Part shown: positions 8,061 through 30,246 of the stretch, one piece after another
Layout of the letters: the number at the start of each line of letters is the position of its first letter
Numbering within the stretch: position 1 is the stretch's first letter
From: Bacteroidota bacterium
GTDB taxonomy: Bacteria; Bacteroidota; Bacteroidia; 2-12-FULL-35-15
Reading direction: 5' to 3'
DNA: 30,362 nt
Assembly (NCBI GenBank): GCA_043783695.1
Contig: JAYVZC010000524.1
Span: 1-30,362 of the forward strand
Position numbers and translations under genes: made by a program
The notes under the pieces: model-generated
The model's input: only the letters and a program-made list of their open reading frames with translations
Databases searched by the model: none
What the model was told of the DNA's origin: nothing

Positions 8061-10223
8061 CTACCTTACCAACGTTACTCTTCCAATGTATTGATGATTT
8101 ATGTTTTTAACATCATCTCTGAAGTTAATTTTATACACAAATACATCGTTGGTGCATAATCTTCCTTTAAAATAACCATTCCAGCCTACTTCTTCGTTGT
8201 TGGTTTCAAATATTTTTTCTCCCCAACGATCAAAAACCAAAAATGAATAATCGTGTACACCCAATAATTTTGGTTTAAACACATCGTTTAATTCGTTTCC
8301 ATTTGGAGTGAATGCATTAGGAATCCAAAATAAAAATTCGGGACGAATAATCACATCTATTTTTGCAGTATCTCTACATCCATTGGCATTTACAACCACT
8401 TGCATAATGGTATATGTTCCGGGTGCTGAATATGCATGCGAAGTATCACAATTGCTATTACTTGTCCCATCGCCCCAATAAATGGTACAATCAATGGCAC
8501 CTGTACTCAAATCAAATGCTGTTACAAGAGGATAAAAAATAGAAGTGTCTTTTGGTGTTGCATTTATTCCCGCTATTGGTGATGGAAAAACAGCAACCGG
8601 TGATGGCAGTGCAAAAGTATCTTTACAGCCGTAAATAGTTGAGACAATTATACTACTCGGATAATTTCCAATTGCGGGATACGTATGAAATGGATTTTGC
8701 AAAGTGGAAGTTCCACCATCACCAAAAGTCCATAGATATGTTAATGGAGGACTAATAGAAGCATCTATAAAACTTACCGGTTGCAAATCGCAAGCAGTGG
8801 AAGTAGCTAAAGTATAATCAGCAATTGGTTTTGGGTATACCACCACATTTGCTGTAACTGTTTCGGAACACCCATTTTCAGTTATTGTGAATGAGACAGG
8901 GAATGTTCCGGCAGAATCGTACACAATATTTGTTGGGTTAAGACTAGTACTTGTTGTAGGACTTGCATTGGCACCAAAATTCCAAGAAAACGTTCCATTG
9001 CCCATAAATGCCCCTCCACCTGTGAAATTGTAACTGTTATCATAAACGCATTCTCCGGGAGGAGGTGAAAATAATGGATCCAATAATGGAAATATATAAA
9101 ATATGTTTGTTTGAGTATCAGCACACATGCTTCCCGGATTGATAATTAACATTACCTGATAAGTTCCTGAATCAGCGTATGTCCACGAGGGATTTAAGAC
9201 ATTAGAAGTATCCAATGTTGTTGTTGGATCACCAAAATCCCAGTGATAAGAAAAAGCATTGAGACTTGCTTGTGTAAAATTTACATTGTAACCAAAGCAA
9301 AAAGTTGTTTGCAAAGGAATGGATGCAACAGGTAAGCCGGGGCAAGTAACAACATTGAATTGGAAATCTCTTTTGTTAACATCAATTAAAACACCGGCAC
9401 GATATTCACTCACGCAAACTCCCACAACCCATTGTCCTACCATGTTTGGAGTCCCAGTCATTAATCCCGTAACCGGATTTACAGCAATTATTGGAGAGGC
9501 ACTCATTGGATAAGTTGCATTGTATGGTACTTGCCAGGGAACAAAAGCATAAGGCGGTGGAGAAGCAATATTGGGACAACCAGCTCCCACACTTGCTCCA
9601 AGCATAGGACAAGCAGTAGTTAAACCAGTGTATGGATCACATAACTCATAATACAACGAATCGCCATCGGGATCGGTAGCAGAATGATCAAAAAACAAAG
9701 GAACACCTGCACACAAAAAAATGGGTGGAAAATTTGTGTAACGCGGACTACTATTTCCGGGAGCAATAGTATTATCAGTAATATGACACATGTATGTTGA
9801 CCCAACATCTCCTGGAAGTACTAAATTTAAAATGGTTCCATTTCTACAACAACGTTGATAGGTTATGTTATAACCACCTGGGATGTTCGGCAAATTAACA
9901 ACCGTCTGATAAATTGCTTCTTCTACACAAATATTTGCAGGAGGCGTAAAGCAGGGATTATTAATTGTGGGAGGCACAATTGCTGTACCGGGAAGCGGGA
10001 TCTCGACACTATCGATAAATGTACCGGCACTATTAAAAATAAAGATACTCGCAGGATTATCGAATGTAATGCCTGTGCAATCGCGGTATACTTTTAACGT
10101 GATTCGATAATTATTTCCACCCAAATTATCATAATAAATTTCGCCACCTACAATGTGAGTAGCAAAATTTTTTAATGATAAAATCATTAAAAATAATAAT
10201 ATGACAAACCGTTTTGTTTTCAT
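8061..10223 (-). CDS. T9SS type-B cargo protein (YRDC/CCRN domain, PKD repeats, CHU_C C-terminal domain)
   Basis: ATG 10223 gives MKTKRF plus a signal peptide (the ORF track extends to TTG 10241). Motifs HIVGGEI, YRDC, CCRN, DPDGDSL; PKD WDFGD/WTFGDG; C-terminal IPNAFTPNGN...FDRWGE...WNG. Confidence 0.9.
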   Translation of the reverse strand: MKTKRFVILLFLMILSLKNFATHIVGGEIYYDNLGGNNYRITLKVYRDCTGITFDNPASIFIFNSAGTFIDSVEIPLPGTAIVPPTINNPCFTPPANICVEEAIYQTVVNLPNIPGGYNITYQRCCRNGTILNLVLPGDVGSTYMCHITDNTIAPGNSSPRYTNFPPIFLCAGVPLFFDHSATDPDGDSLYYELCDPYTGLTTACPMLGASVGAGCPNIASPPPYAFVPWQVPYNATYPMSASPIIAVNPVTGLMTGTPNMVGQWVVGVCVSEYRAGVLIDVNKRDFQFNVVTCPGLPVASIPLQTTFCFGYNVNFTQASLNAFSYHWDFGDPTTTLDTSNVLNPSWTYADSGTYQVMLIINPGSMCADTQTNIFYIFPLLDPLFSPPPGECVYDNSYNFTGGGAFMGNGTFSWNFGANASPTTSTSLNPTNIVYDSAGTFPVSFTITENGCSETVTANVVVYPKPIADYTLATSTACDLQPVSFIDASISPPLTYLWTFGDGGTSTLQNPFHTYPAIGNYPSSIIVSTIYGCKDTFALPSPVAVFPSPIAGINATPKDTSIFYPLVTAFDLSTGAIDCTIYWGDGTSNSNCDTSHAYSAPGTYTIMQVVVNANGCRDTAKIDVIIRPEFLFWIPNAFTPNGNELNDVFKPKLLGVHDYSFLVFDRWGEKIFETNNEEVGWNGYFKGRLCTNDVFVYKINFRDDVKNINHQYIGRVTLVR

Positions 10224-12213: not shown

Positions 12214-12243
12214 TACTGATAACTAATCATTCCGAATTATACG

Positions 12244-12268
12244 CTTCTCGACTCCGCTCGAAGTGACA
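12244..12268 (+). repeat. REP-like palindrome, family 2 (TGTCAC-tagged on the minus strand)
   Basis: CTTCTCGACTCCGCTCGAAGTGACA shares TCGACTCCGCTC-N3-GTGACA with the copy inside tsaB at 17636. Confidence 0.8.
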
Positions 12269-12337: not shown

Positions 12338-12365
12338 CCCCTCTTGAGAGGGGCTATGGGCGTGT
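12338..12365 (+). repeat. GC-rich hairpin repeat, divergent family 1 copy
   Basis: CCCCTCT-TG-AGAGGGG followed by the tail CTATGGGCGTGT, similar to the hairpin and G-rich tail of the metH cassette ends. Confidence 0.55.
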
Positions 12366-17264: not shown

Positions 17265-18022
17265 ACTTCGCCTTTCTTCTTCCCAGCAACAAAATCCTTC
17301 AAGTAAAACGGTTCAAAATAAGCAACATTTTCAAATTGCTTAGCATTGTATGCTTGCTCGGATAGTCCAATCATCTCTTTCGCAGAAGGAACAACATCGT
17401 CTATAAAAATAGTATTTGAATTTTGAGAAAATGTTTCTTTGCATTTAGCAGCTCCATCTCCGAAAAAAACAATTTTATTCGTTTTAAAAATATCTGAAAA
17501 AGAATGTTCATCAATAATTTCTGCAGCAGTTGGTTTTATTTCTTTTCCCACTGAATCATAAATGGCACAATACACTTCCATTCTGCGAGCATCTAACATT
17601 GGACAAAAAAATGTTGGTTGTCCAGCGTCCACTCGCCCTTCGACTCCGCTCAGGGTGACAGCTCGGGATGACCGACCTTCGGTCGCACTCAGGGTGATGT
17701 AACGAGAAGATGTTGCTAAGGAAAGGTATTTTAGAGTGTCCACAGCAACCAAAGGTTTATCCAAAGAATAACACAATCCTTTTGCTGTACTAACTCCAAT
17801 TCTTAATCCTGTATAGGAGCCTGGACCTTTACTAACGGCTATTGCCTCAATATCGGAAAGTTTAACATTTCCTTGCTTGCAAACATTTTCAATAAATAGG
17901 GTTAGATTTTCGGCATGAGAATAATTACCGTTCTGTTCTTTGAGTGCAATTAATTTTCCATCTTTCGCAAGAGAAACACTGCAAACAGTAGTTGCTGTTT
18001 CTAAGTTTAAGATAAGTGCCAT
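17261..18022 (-). CDS. tsaB: tRNA threonylcarbamoyladenosine biosynthesis protein TsaB, with an in-frame repeat insertion
   Basis: ILNLETATTVCSV, GPGSYTGLRIGVSTAKGL, PMLDARRMEVY and EPFYLK. Confidence 0.93.
   Translation of the reverse strand: MALILNLETATTVCSVSLAKDGKLIALKEQNGNYSHAENLTLFIENVCKQGNVKLSDIEAIAVSKGPGSYTGLRIGVSTAKGLCYSLDKPLVAVDTLKYLSLATSSRYITLSATEGRSSRAVTLSGVEGRVDAGQPTFFCPMLDARRMEVYCAIYDSVGKEIKPTAAEIIDEHSFSDIFKTNKIVFFGDGAAKCKETFSQNSNTIFIDDVVPSAKEMIGLSEQAYNAKQFENVAYFEPFYLKDFVAGKKKGEV
17636..17697 (-). repeat. Tandem pair of family 2 REP-like palindromes inside tsaB
   Basis: Minus strand TCACCCTGAGTGCGACCGAAGG and TGTCACCCTGAGCGGAGTCGAAGGG, 39 nt apart, translated as ITLSATEGR and VTLSGVEGR. 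Confidence 0.85.
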
Positions 18023-19404: not shown

Positions 19405-19426
19405 ATGACTTCTGTTTTATCACAGA

Positions 19427-19442
19427 CCTGCCGGCAGGCAGG
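19427..19442. repeat. GC-rich palindrome CCTGCCGGCAGGCAGG (third repeat type)
   Basis: Perfect 12-bp palindrome CCTGCCGGCAGG (19427-19438) plus CAGG within an AT-rich intergenic region. Confidence 0.65.
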
Positions 19443-19523
19443 TTACTCAGATTTTTTATTTAAAATTTTTCTGTATTTATCTAAGTTATCTGATTCTTTC
19501 TAATATTTTTTTAACGCCTTGCC

Positions 19524-25397: not shown

Positions 25398-28300
25398 TTA
25401 ATAAGCCAAATTCGGACCTAACCAACGTTCTGCTTTATCCAAACTCATTCCTTTTCTTTTAGCATAATCTACTACTTGATCTTGTTTAATTTTGCCAATT
25501 CCAAAATAGTGCGATTGAGGATGAGCAAAATATAAACCACTAACAGCAGCTGTTGGAAACATAGCCATGCTTTCTGTTAAAATCATTCCAGTATTTTTTT
25601 CTACATCCAATAATTTCCAGATAGTTGGTTTCTCGGTATGATCGGGTTGTGCCGGATAACCTGGAGCTGGACGAATTCCCGCGTATTCTTCCTTTATTAA
25701 TTCTTCATTTTTCAAATTCTCCTCTTTTGCATATCCCCAGAATTCTTTTCTCACTTTTTTATGCATCAACTCAGCAAAAGCTTCCGCCAAACGATCGGCC
25801 AATGCTTTTAACATGATGGCAGAATAATCGTCATGGTCTTTTTCGAAACGGGAAACGTGTTCATCAATTCCAATTCCGGTTGTGAGGGCAAAGGATCCAA
25901 TGTAATCAGACCTCACCCCCGGCCCCTCTCCGAAGGAGAGGGGTGCGAGTTCCTCTTTAATTTTTTTGATTACTTCATCTATGGAAGTTAAAACAGATTT
26001 GTTGGAAAAACGGATTACTCTGTATCCGATATCTTCAAGCATATACGTTCTCCCATCATCATATTCTTTTTGATGATTGTGAATCTCTCCATCAACTTCA
26101 ACAATTAGTTTCTCTTCAATACAAATAAAATCCGCTATAAATTGTCCTATTGGATGTTGTCTTCTAAACTTCGATTCTAATTTACGATTACGTAACTCTT
26201 GCCATAATTTTTCTTCCGCTGGAGTTGGTGATTTACGCATACTTTTCGCATGAAGAATATTTCGACTCCAATTTTCCCAATCTGCAGTATGATATCTCGG
26301 AACGCCTCCCCTCTCCTTCGGAGAGGGGCTGGGGGTGAGGTCTTTTGGCAAAACAAAATCCGACAAAGCAACATTATATTGTCCGGCTGGTTTTTTTGTT
26401 TGCTGGCGCAATGAATGAAAAGTTGTTTTTATTTCTTTTCTACTTTCATCAGTATAAACTTCTATATCATCTGAATTGATTTGATTAGCAGGATAAATTC
26501 CAATCACAGCATTTGCCTTCAGCCATTTTTCATCAATAATCTTTTTTAACATGGCTTGAGCATCGTCAAATAATTTACGTGCTTCTTCTCCACGAGTTGG
26601 GTCTTTTAATATTTTTGGATAAGAACCTTTCATTTCCCAAGAGATGAAGAAAGGTGTCCAGTCAATGTATTCAGCTATTTCCGATAAAGGATAATCATTG
26701 ATGACTTTATTTCCAATGAAAGATGGTTTTACAATTTCTGTTTTATTCCAATCAATTGGAAATTTATTTTCGCGTGCTTCTGCTATTGAAATAAATTTAT
26801 TTTGTGATTGAGCATTTTTATTTTGTTCGCGAACACGGTCATAATCCTTAGTGATTTCAACCATAAAAGCATCACGCAATTCATCCGAAATTAAACTACT
26901 AGCAACTGGAACTGATTTACTAGCATCGTTCACATGTACAACAGGACCAGAATAATTTTGAGCAATTTTTACAGCCGTATGCACTTTAGAAGTTGTTGCG
27001 CCACCAATTAATAAAGGAGTTTTAAATCCTAAACGTTCCATTTCTTTGGCAACATGAACCATTTCATCCAACGATGGTGTAATCAATCCGCTCAAACCAA
27101 TTATATCGACATCATGTTTTTTTGCTTCCTCTAAAATTTTATCAGCAGAAACCATTACACCTAAATCAATGATTTCATAATTGTTACAAGCCAATACCAC
27201 TCCGACAATATTTTTTCCAATATCGTGAACATCACCTTTTACCGTTGCCATTAATATTTTTCCGCGCCCCCTAGCCCCACCCGACCTCCCCAAAGGGGAG
27301 GAGCTGGATTTCGAGTCTAAGAATGATTTGATTTTAGCTAATACATTGTCTGTGTCAACGAGAACTTCTTCATTAGTAAATCGAATTACTTTGTATCCTT
27401 TTTCTTCCAACCAGCTAGTTCTTTGAGCATCATTTTCTATATTTTCTGGTAATTGATGAATTAAGCCATCAATTTCAATTATTAGTTTTTTTGATAAACA
27501 AACTAGGTCAGCAATATATTTTCCTATTATATGTTGTCTTCTAAATTTATGCTCCCCTAATTTTTTTCCTTTAACTAAACTCCATAAGGCATTCTCTGCT
27601 TCAGTGGGATTGCTTCTATGTTTTTCAGCAAACTCCTTCAAAAGTGGATATAAAATTGGATCCGCTGTTTCATAATCATGACGATGAGCAGCTCCCTTTC
27701 CTTCGGAAAGGGCTAGGGATAGGCTTTTTTCTTTTTCGGCTTGAAGATAGGGCTCTAAATATGCAACTGCTTTTTTCATAACACGTGCACTCTTCACCAC
27801 TTGAGGTAAAAACATTTTTCCGCTTCCAAACAAATCACCCACCACATTCATTCCATCCATCAATGGTCCTTCAATAACATGCAAGGGCCGGCCTAATTTT
27901 AATCTTGCCTCTTCTGTATCTACATCAATATATTCTACAAGTCCTTTTACAAGAGCATGACTCAAACGTTCCTCCACTGTTCCTTTTCTCCATTCTTCAT
28001 TTTTCTCCGCTTTTTCTTTTGTAATTCCTTTCAATGATTCAGCATGGTCAACTAATCTTTCTGTAGCATCATCTCTTCTGTTCAATAAAACATCTTCTAC
28101 CAATTCCAATAATGTTTTATCAATATCATCATACACTTGCAATTGTGCAGGATTTACAATTCCCATATCCATTCCTGCTTTTACAGCATGATATAAAAAT
28201 GCACCGTGAATTGCTTCACGCACATGATCATTCCCTCTGAAAGAAAATGAAACATTACTAACTCCTCCGCTCACTTTTGCAAACGGAAGATTTTCCTTGA

Positions 28301-30014
28301 TCCATTTTGTTGCGTTGAAAAAATCGAGTGCATTTAACCGATGTTCTTCCATTCCGGTTGCAACGGGAAAAATATTCGGATCGAAAATAATATCTTGCGG
28401 AGGAAAATGAACTTTATCTACAAGCACATCATAAGCTCGTTTGCAAATATCAATTCTGCGTTGCAATGTATCTGCTTGTCCTTGTTCATCAAAAGCCATA
28501 ACAATTACAGCGGCACCGTATTGTTTTATTTTATTGGCTTGTTCAATAAATTTTTCTTCTCCTTCTTTTAAAGAGATGGAATTTACAATTGCTTTTCCTT
28601 GAACACATTTTAAGCCTGCTTCAATCACACTCCATTTAGAAGAGTCGATCATTATCGGCACTTTACTGATATCCGGTTCAGATGCAATGAGATTTAAGAA
28701 CTTGGTCATTGCTGCTTCACTGTCCAACATTCCTTCATCCATGTTCACGTCAATTACCTGAGCTCCACCATCTACTTGATCTTTCGCAATAGACAATGCC
28801 TCTTCGTAATTTCCTTCGTTGATCAAACGCAAGAATTTTTTGGAACCTGTAACGTTTGTCCGTTCACCCACATTCATAAAATTACTTTCGGGACGAAGTG
28901 TTAATGGTTCCAATCCGCTCAAGTGCATTAATGTATCGGCTGCAGGTATTTTACGAGGCTTTGACTCTTTTGCCAATTCAGCAATCCGTTTGATATGTTC
29001 AGGAGTTGTTCCACAACATCCACCAACAATATTTAAAAATCCGGCACGTAAAAAATCTTCGATCTGATGTCCCATTTCATGAGCATCCTGATCGTATTCA
29101 CCAAACTGATTGGGCAATCCTGCATTGGGATATGCACTTACATAAAAAGGAGCTTTGTTTGAAAGCTCTTCTAAATAAGGACGCATATCTTTTGCACCCA
29201 AAGCACAATTTAAACCAACGCTTAATAAATCGACATGTGAAATAGAATTTAAAAATGCTTCCGTAGTTTGTCCAGATAATGTTCTACCACTTGCATCGGT
29301 AATTGTTCCCGACACCATTACTGGCATCATAATATTTTTTTCTTTGCAAACATTTTGAATAGCAAACAAAGCTGCTTTTGCATTCAAAGTATCAAAAATG
29401 GTTTCAACCAATAACAAATCTGCACCGCCTTCAATCAATCCACGAGCTTGTTCTGAATAAGCAACAACTAACTCATCAAAAGTAGTAGCACGAAATCCTG
29501 GATCGTTTACGTTTGGAGAAAGTGAAAGCGTTCTGTTGGTCGGGCCAAAAGCTCCTGCCACAAATACCCCACCCCTGCCCTCCCCAAAGGGGAGGGAGTT
29601 GATTTCTGCTAAATATTCTGCAACGGCTTCTTTTGCAATTTTTGCTGACTCGTAATTTAATTCATAAGCAAGCTCTTGCATGTCATAATCCGCCATTGCA
29701 ATTGTAGTTGCACTAAAAGTATTTGTTTCAATAATATCAGCTCCTGCTTTTAGATATTCTTTATGAATGGCTTTAATAATTTGCGGTTGAGTTATCGACA
29801 ATAAATCGTTATTCCCTTTCAAGTCTTTATGCCAATCTGCAAAGCGTTTGCTTCTGAAATCTTTTTCTTCCAGCTTATATTGTTGAATCATGGTACCCAT
29901 TGCACCATCAATTACCAAAATGCGTTTTTCTAATTCTTTTTTTATATCAGACCCCTCTCTAGTTCTCTCCATTGGGGAGAGAGGGTTGCCTTCACTTATC
30001 TTTATCGTATTCAT
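25398..30014 (-). CDS. metH: B12-dependent methionine synthase with two in-frame DUF559 insertions
   Basis: [34 protein letters not shown], pterin domain, [20 protein letters not shown] and GIRPAPGYP motifs. At 1538 aa it is longer than the about 1230 aa typical of the family. Confidence 0.95.
25908..26343 (-). mobile_element. Putative DUF559 endonuclease cassette B with 36-bp terminal inverted repeats, in frame in metH
   Basis: Inverted repeats at 25908-25943 and 26308-26343 match at 35 of 36 positions. The interior encodes PTPAEEKLW...[15 protein letters not shown]...[10 protein letters not shown]...GYRVIRFSN. The mobility is inferred. Confidence 0.8.
27264..27725 (-). mobile_element. Putative DUF559 endonuclease cassette A flanked by inverted family 1 hairpins, in frame in metH
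   Basis: Hairpins CCTCCCC-AAA-GGGGAGG (27285-27301) and CCCTTTCC-TTC-GGAAAGGG (27694-27712) in inverted orientation. The interior encodes PTEAENALW...[15 protein letters not shown]...[10 protein letters not shown]...GYKVIRFTN. Confidence 0.78.
29566..29597 (+). repeat. Solo family 1 hairpin, in frame in metH
   Basis: ACCCCACCCCTGCCCTCCCCAAAGGGGAGGGA, translated on the minus strand as [11 protein letters not shown]. Confidence 0.88.
29950..29985 (+). repeat. Degenerate solo family 1 hairpin in the metH N-terminal extension
   Basis: GACCCCTCTCTAGTTCTCTCCATTGGGGAGAGAGGG with stem TCTCTCC/GGAGAGA, translated as [12 protein letters not shown]. Confidence 0.7.
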
Positions 30015-30211: not shown

Positions 30212-30246
30212 CTCACTCTAATCCTCTCCTTGCAAAAGGAAAGGGA
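30212..30246 (+). repeat. Degenerate family 1 hairpin in the metH leader
   Basis: CTCACTCTAATCCTCTCCTTGCAAAAGGAAAGGGA; 8 of 9 stem positions pair. Confidence 0.6.

Follow-up and report, generated by a model that had tools for sequence, protein, structure and literature searches.

DUF559 nuclease cassettes with inverted triplex-type repeat ends inserted in frame in metH and other conserved genes of Bacteroidota

A selfish nuclease that sits in an essential gene is generally held to depend on an intron or an intein for the host protein to survive. A contig of 30,362 nucleotides from a Bacteroidota bacterium (GenBank assembly GCA_043783695.1, contig JAYVZC010000524.1, analyzed over its full length and referred to here as the window) raises the question of whether a nuclease gene can live within a conserved gene in another way. 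Its minus strand at 25398-30014 encodes a cobalamin-dependent methionine synthase (MetH) of 1538 residues, which hosts two DUF559 nuclease domains, each bracketed by hairpin repeats. A first-pass annotation, made from the letters alone, had interpreted this arrangement as an autonomous nuclease-plus-ends element, accompanied by non-autonomous solo repeats and tolerated as a permanent protein fusion, an interpretation that our analysis partly supports. We find a discrete unit that enters conserved genes at recurrent loops, is exchanged there for other versions, degrades and disappears, and that is tightly linked to its end repeats.

Two in-frame nuclease cassettes in a methionine synthase gene

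The window is one contig (C524) of a metagenome-assembled genome (MAG; our label G000) of 3.09 Mb in 531 contigs with 34% G+C, and DNA of the locus was found in sediment metagenome runs. Contigs assembled independently from two sediment runs (25908-27839 whole; 25617-26326 and 26297-27839) show zero differences. As they bridge both cassettes and the host junctions, an assembly chimera, a concern raised in the first-pass annotation, is ruled out; read depth increases at repeats only, as repeated words would give. The presence of two in-frame DUF559 cassettes in metH is a confirmed, real observation.

A Pfam scan of the 1538-residue protein returned seven families, including S-methyl_trans, Pterin_bind, B12-binding_2, B12-binding, Met_synt_B12 (in two pieces) and DUF559 (PF04480), the last matching two stretches (E 5.6e-71; 235.8 bits against a cut-off of 20.6). 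Around each stretch lies what we call a cassette, a DUF559 frame without a start or stop codon of its own, between two inverted repeat units. In each end unit, a C-rich stem and a G-rich stem are separated by a loop and followed by a second G-rich tail; the tails face outward from the cassette. Cassette A occupies residues 764-918 of MetH and cassette B residues 1225-1369; metH is the host of all the insertions, and its parts are, by position:

25398..30014, minus strand: metH, cobalamin-dependent methionine synthase, 1538 residues (open reading frame, Pfam and structure model)
25908..26342, minus strand: cassette B, of lineage alpha (145 codons, 435 nt), within the activation-domain loop PK..DYIG
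25908..25946, minus strand: cassette B right end (hairpin, CCG loop, G-rich tail), translated, 13 residues
25947..26255, minus strand: DUF559 nuclease domain of cassette B (126 bits; 3HRL E 1.2e-21; fold of 3hrl and 3r3p)
26307..26342, minus strand: cassette B left end (tail and hairpin; inverted-repeat pair), translated, 12 residues
27261..27725, minus strand: cassette A (155 codons, 465 nt), within the linker that joins the B12 cap to the B12-binding domain
27261..27308, minus strand: cassette A right end, variant stem CCTCCCC and G-rich tail, translated, 16 residues
27318..27638, minus strand: DUF559 nuclease domain of cassette A (122 bits)
27690..27725, minus strand: cassette A left end, variant with stem CCCTTTCC, translated, 12 residues
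29565..29600, minus strand: solo repeat in the loop before VAGAFGP, translated, 12 residues
29949..29987, minus strand: solo degenerate repeat in the MetH N-terminal extension, translated, 13 residues

The two nuclease domains are 44% identical, close to the 45% that had been estimated by hand. The first-pass annotation had also described each cassette as bracketed by inverted copies of one repeat with the hairpins facing inward. In cassette B, the ends are 36-nt terminal inverted repeats, 97% complementary, each arm comprising a 9-bp hairpin and an outward G-rich tail, which is the orientation described as facing inward. In cassette A, the ends are unlike subtypes; the aligner found just a 9-nt inverted match between them, and both are nonetheless three-block hairpin-plus-tail units. 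Both translated solo copies that had been annotated in MetH were recovered. Moreover, alignment with the cassette-free MetH of 50 relatives agreed with the proposal that every metH insertion is in frame and that the internal ones fall in variable loops or linkers.

The nuclease domain aligns to the structural-genomics protein 3HRL (E 1e-21), and the motifs D-F-x-C, E-x-D-G-x-x-H and R-F are kept in all copies except a decayed one in genome G055. In an AlphaFold model of MetH residues 1040-1538 (mean pLDDT 76), the nuclease appears as a separate domain (pLDDT 91-97), and the low-confidence linkers coincide with the translated repeats. The host part of the model matches MetH activation-domain structures (6bm5; TM-score 0.84), while the insert matches 3hrl (TM-score 0.83) and the catalytic domain of I-Bth0305I (3r3p; TM-score 0.74, E 3e-3), in keeping with the earlier assignment of DUF559 to the Vsr-like fold. 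As modeled, the nuclease shares its fold with a proven homing endonuclease, I-Bth0305I, and the host fold is intact. We know of no DUF559 member that has been demonstrated to home. The ratio dN/dS is ~0.08-0.10 for the two cassette lineages introduced below, alpha and beta, compared to 0.04-0.05 for MetH, with dS saturated; judged from these ratios, the cassette nuclease is under purifying selection.

The Pfam matches of the whole MetH include no Hint or intein family. Nothing is conserved at the junctions across the lineages, neither a nucleophile (Cys, Ser or Thr) nor the His-Asn of an intein end (PK/DLTP...GVRS/DYIG and EKEK/SLSL...GRG/KILM, with slashes at the junctions), and no Rfam family reached its gathering score anywhere in the window. 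No sign of an intein or a group I/II intron was found, with no Hint domain, junction nucleophile or Rfam ribozyme and the inserts being in frame and stop-free. The earlier statement that the cassettes do without an intein agrees with these results.

Allelic states of metH and cassettes in other genes

We searched 61 genomes of the genus and fetched and aligned full metH genes from 50 of them; in G056, one of the 61, metH is broken at contig ends, and this genome was left out of the alignments and trees. Both metH sites are filled in the source genome and in G017 only, a further 13 genomes carry a cassette at site 2 but not at site 1, and the rest are cassette-free. Site 2, the variable loop between PK and DYIG, is empty in most genomes; it holds lineage alpha in eight and lineage beta, which has an end type of its own, in seven. 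Alpha and beta are 42-45% identical to each other, while their MetH hosts are 83-98% identical. In the sister genomes G008 (beta) and G070 (alpha), MetH is 98% identical and the cassettes 44%, and a further sister pair combines a beta allele (G045) with an empty one (G020). On a MetH tree of the 50 genomes, alpha requires eight changes for its eight rows and beta seven for seven. Cassette and host divergence are uncoupled (r 0.30 and 0.12), and at third codon positions the cassettes are more alike on average than their hosts (0.585 versus 0.535). The comparison of filled and empty alleles that the first-pass annotation had called for thus yields sporadic presence at one site, incongruent with the host phylogeny, as homing would give. 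The fusion is not inherited vertically; its states are scattered on the host tree, with alpha and beta in hosts that are 98% identical.

Site 2 also holds a range of partial and composite states. The nuclease core has been deleted from a beta copy in G014, solo right ends retaining the last codons of the nuclease are found in G004 and G068, G024 has a tail-hairpin-tail palindrome, G018 a lone tail, and G060 a chimera of an alpha left end with a beta body. In the G055 copy, the catalytic motif and the end repeats have both decayed. Cassettes come and go, replace one another and decay at recurrent metH loops, and their mobility is well supported.

The same unit is found in other genes. Among 41 relatives, ~30 of ~80 DUF559 matches lie in long open frames, distributed over at least 14 host genes. 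In answer to the earlier call for a list of such genes, these include MetH, LeuRS (two sites), IleRS, an IcmF-like mutase (two sites), acetyl-CoA synthetase, HsdR, RecJ, a TsaB-like protein, a CoA-transferase, an aldehyde dehydrogenase-MaoC fusion and SpoIIE sensors; across Bacteroidota, chorismate synthase is an in-frame host as well. All of the ~30 insertions in the relatives are on the sense strand, in frame and stop-free over ~145 codons, in genomes of 34% G+C. Searched against 1.84 billion representative proteins, the domain had 23,768 matches; of the best 150, about one third are long proteins that contain it internally. The hosts among these 150 include PheRS beta, Tgt, UvrC, Lhr, a Mur ligase, SpoIID, a glycosyltransferase, a trehalase and restriction-modification enzymes. 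Two proteins carry the domain repeatedly, P0002 (377 residues) as three tandem copies and P0003 (1214 residues), an Eco57I-type restriction-modification enzyme, as two.

Named genome records with the cassette belong to Chitinophagaceae, Saprospiraceae, Lewinellaceae, Flavobacteriales and Cytophagales, and one isolate, Hymenobacter terrenus MIMtkLc17, has a cassette, bounded by 51-nt ends, in an FGAM-synthase-like gene with a GATase_5 domain. The MetH positions used in the genus are occupied in other orders too: Mesohalobacter and Saprospiraceae MAGs have a cassette at site 1, and a Lewinellaceae MAG has one at site 2. On a DUF559 tree, the in-frame copies form one group (SH-aLRT 88) and cluster by host gene or site, not by genome, and a clade of free-standing genes with inward tails is separate (SH-aLRT 99); many forks are unresolved because the alignment is short.

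End repeats and their association with the nuclease

Inverted units bracket all five DUF559 copies of the source genome; around the three free-standing genes their geometry is the opposite one, with tails inward. One of these genes (C406:2000-2720) has two nested inverted-repeat pairs, as if an element had entered an element or the ends had been duplicated. In the 41 related genomes, an inverted repeat (score of at least 30) flanks 37 of 46 distinct DUF559 places, compared to 4 of 1000 positions drawn at random from these loci. The repeat pattern has 308 matches in these genomes and 0 in a backwards-read control. Repeats number 0 to 42 per genome and track the presence of DUF559 (Spearman 0.56; median 5 versus 0), a correlation in which kin are not independent and p-values are overstated. 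The proposed link between nuclease and repeat thus stands.

The three-block build, in which a C-stem and a complementary G-stem are followed, after a short loop, by a mirrored second G-block, is seen in all six metH copies and in the copy at 19523. Judged by this order of blocks, the end repeat has the architecture of the BoxC/PIT/TMECO triplex motif; triplex formation itself is predicted. It shares with the E. coli BoxC/PIT/TMECO repeats, which form an intrastrand triplex (Holder et al. 2015; PMC4666352), the three blocks, second loops of CCG and TTA, frequent inverted pairs, a copy number that varies between close relatives and local instability. In contrast, the published copies are intergenic in Proteobacteria, with no described nuclease partner or translated copies (PMC4666352). 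The published strict TMECO consensus, CCCTCNCCC N3-6 GGGNGAGGG N3 GGGNGAGGG, has 0 matches in the window because the stem register is shifted by one base, and a relaxed three-block pattern with a gap limit of one base caught 2 window copies only. A control for triplex potential, mirror versus direct (123 versus 70 matches), discriminates poorly because the G-rich blocks are nearly symmetric.

This build replaces the earlier classification of the repeats as repetitive extragenic palindromes (REPs), elements usually tied to Y1 transposases of the RAYT type. The source genome has three Y1_Tnp matches, all flanked by other palindromes, and a RAYT-type REP was rejected. RAYT-like Y1 transposase genes on contigs C485 (4487-5062) and C255 (104-782) have their own palindromes, of 33 and 54 nt, and look like an ordinary REP/RAYT arrangement apart from the DUF559 repeats. 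As in REP/RAYT systems and miniature inverted-repeat transposable elements (MITEs), there are many short GC-rich hairpins in genome-specific variants, and an enzyme-bearing element occurs alongside enzyme-less short copies. Unlike them, the cassette has no DDE or HUH enzyme, DUF559 being the sole frame inside. Terminal inverted repeats, as MITEs have, are present in the cassettes; no target-site duplication or cognate transposase was found. In G010, solo repeats and cassette ends share an unusual AATT loop.

The source genome contains ~90 such hairpins, and 16 of 91 lie well inside open reading frames of at least 250 residues, so that in-frame solo copies are common. Outside metH, four further copies had been counted in the window; we found three:

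12338..12353, plus strand: short hairpin, of the variant flanking the free-standing DUF559 gene of contig C406
19523..19557, plus strand: intergenic solo copy of the cassette-end repeat family
30213..30245 (approximate), minus strand: degenerate repeat copy just upstream of metH

Paired inverted units 73-81 nt apart, in cassette geometry and with no nuclease, occur at C494:3236-3353, C429:1758-1869 and C429:4249-4358 and look like MITE-like derivatives. An unrelated palindromic repeat (core CTTCGACTCCGCTCAGGGTGA; the second family of the first-pass annotation) is found in tandem at ~17634-17697 within 17630-17705 of the window, and also at 12242-12266. It is translated as VTLSGVEG in the MetH loop before VAGAFGP of G045 (L102) and G044 (L071), a loop in which small repeats generally tend to collect. 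Solo repeats are also present in yet another MetH loop, the third, which follows DDIEVY at about residue 1192, in G007 (L039), G050 (L098), G018 (L074) and G006 (L113). The alpha cassette of G007 has no repeat at its own left junction, and the unit in the upstream DDIEVY loop is its sole left partner. A third hairpin family with the stem CAGGCAGG/CCTGCCTG occurs at 19425-19444 of the window and at ~54 places genome-wide, and adjoins a triplex-type repeat on contig C224.

In E. coli K-12 (NC_000913.3, 1351040-1351410), a degenerate motif lies at the stop codon of ycjD, the single DUF559 gene of that genome. Past it come a partial duplicate, ~45 nt long, of the 3' end of the gene and next, ~170 nt downstream of ycjD, a full TMECO/BoxC repeat. 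We regard this adjacency as a lead, not a test. Elsewhere in the window, at 900-2900 and 8661-8732 on the minus-strand coding side, there are diverged direct-repeat families with periods of ~230-920 nt, probably a large repetitive surface protein.

Proposed mechanism, alternatives and known systems

We suggest, as a reading to which we give an even chance, that the element is a selfish, homing-like nuclease cassette that is translated within its host protein and spread by nuclease-driven, break-induced recombination. The element would be a unit of ~430-470 bp, a Vsr-like DUF559 frame bounded by two inverted triplex-type repeats. It would be translated as an extra MetH domain on two flexible Pro/Gly/Ser linkers derived from the repeats, so that no intron or intein would be needed. 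The nuclease, possibly while embedded in the host protein, would break cassette-free alleles or solo repeats, and recombinational repair from a filled copy would spread or restore the cassette. The outcome would be a homing-like cycle of gain, fixation, decay and loss. Solo repeats may in part be scars of lost cassettes and in part small non-autonomous relatives moved by the same machinery. On this reading, we infer that the cassette mobilizes itself and is retained in mature MetH. A bolder and more doubtful idea, which we put forward tentatively, is that DUF559 is the missing enzyme partner of BoxC/PIT/TMECO-type repeats, recognizing their hairpin/triplex ends and driving an undescribed form of transposition or homing, while being expressed only when embedded in essential proteins; solo repeats would then be non-autonomous.

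Several observations weigh against a homing-like cassette. No direct repeat was found when a target-site duplication was sought at 25 junction pairs. Sliding 40-codon windows along metH revealed no excess host-flank similarity among alleles with the same cassette, and hence no co-conversion signal, although at ~78% nucleotide identity the species are too diverged for short co-conversion tracts to show. No near-identical cassettes are shared between species; all are old, and the insertion events are thus not recent. At metH site 2 there are three nuclease lineages, and the Lewinellaceae nuclease found there is closest (67%) to the Saprospiraceae nuclease at site 1, so that the nuclease is not a strict determinant of the host site. 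The runs found to contain the locus are DNA runs only, with no RNA run among them. Finally, repeats outnumber nucleases (308 versus 82 in the 41 genomes), G019 has 22 repeats and no detectable DUF559 at 91% completeness, and one MetH loop carries solo repeats in several of the 50 genomes and never a cassette.

These last three points are also what would be seen if it were the repeat that moves, by way of a host process or of an enzyme not linked to it, and DUF559 were a captured passenger serving repair, defense or nothing. We consider this unlikely, and it nevertheless keeps its weight as the main rival because of the ~4:1 excess of repeats, the case of G019 and the loop occupied by solo repeats only; it is likewise favored by the 16 of 91 source-genome hairpins that lie alone inside long open frames and by the related E. 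coli motif, which has no known enzyme partner. A mere passenger is difficult to square with inverted repeats at 37 of 46 DUF559 genes as against 0.4% of controls, including a free-standing clade with opposite ends, or with the strong purifying selection on the nuclease. Moreover, repeated random capture would not be expected to place the in-frame copies in one DUF559 group, and in G055 the nuclease motif and the ends decayed together. The homing and passenger readings would be reconciled by a landing-pad version, in which permissive loops would first be entered by small repeats, themselves the later targets of homing nuclease cassettes, and which would explain several lineages at one site.

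The remaining explanations concern the fate of the insert and its origin. If the cassette were removed before the enzyme works, by an unrecognized intron, by ribosomal bypass over an end stem or by a new kind of protein splicing, its ends could pair in the transcript as a 36-bp stem that brings the junctions together. Removal would, however, require none of the features shared by the ~30 insertions in at least 14 host genes, which are all sense, in frame and stop-free over ~145 codons. As there is also no Hint domain, conserved junction Cys/Ser/Thr or Rfam family, and in the model the insert folds as a domain on linkers while the host fold next to it is intact, we hold removal to be improbable. 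Recruitment by the host, with the nuclease kept for the benefit of the cell as a regulatory or moonlighting domain, would account for the purifying selection and for the way in which insertions from several orders recur at shared loops of essential enzymes, yet most close relatives are cassette-free, the host genes are functionally unrelated and decayed copies are common, which makes it very improbable. Least probable of all, to our minds, are ancient domain fusions inherited vertically with many losses and no current mobility. The cassettes are indeed old, with saturated dS, the nuclease clades follow host gene or site, and no co-conversion signal is seen; such fusions are contradicted by 44%-identical lineages at one site in 98%-identical hosts, at least 12 state changes on the tree, a chimeric alpha/beta allele and the uncoupling of cassette and host distances.

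If the homing-like cassette is borne out, it would add a third mode in which nuclease genes can persist within conserved genes, surviving by being translated, with repeats that encode the flexible linkers of their own element. It would also explain many of the "DUF559 fusion" architectures in databases and provide a candidate enzyme for long-known, unexplained triplex-forming bacterial repeats. The insertions show where, in nature, MetH, aminoacyl-tRNA synthetases and further enzymes have sites permissive for domain insertion, and the metH series of the genus (empty, alpha, beta, chimeric, deleted and solo alleles) is a ready-made test system.

In the literature on DUF559, ycjD, intein-less homing, MITEs and triplex repeats, we found no published description of such a cassette. 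The solo repeats in MetH resemble the Rickettsia palindromic elements in being in frame and translated. Those elements are reportedly short palindromes inserted in frame in coding genes and translated as surface loops; they measure ~100-150 bp and encode no enzyme, and the cassette repeats are shorter. We are not aware of Rickettsia palindromic elements that bracket a nuclease.

Inteins and group I introns with nucleases of the Vsr-like EDxHD family, the homing endonucleases described together with "fractured genes" (Dassa et al. 2009; PMC2677866), likewise place a selfish nuclease gene at conserved sites of essential genes. Like the cassette, inteins and group I introns with homing nucleases are patchy in relatives, occupy the same site in distant hosts, decay and are lost, and the folds superpose (TM-score 0.74). 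Unlike them, the cassette involves no intron, intein or split gene, and its nuclease frame is continuous with the host frame; it belongs to Pfam DUF559, is bounded by inverted hairpins, which homing does not need, and is represented by several lineages per site. The ShiLan insertion element of actinophage DNA methylases (Arsenault et al. 2025; PMC11855218) is similar in being an in-frame, read-through insertion with a homing-like distribution that is neither an intein nor an intron. In ShiLan, however, a different reading frame conceals an HNH nuclease, and translation in frame yields just a loop, whereas the in-frame product of the cassette is the nuclease itself, which is of another family, resides in cellular housekeeping hosts and is flanked by repeat ends.

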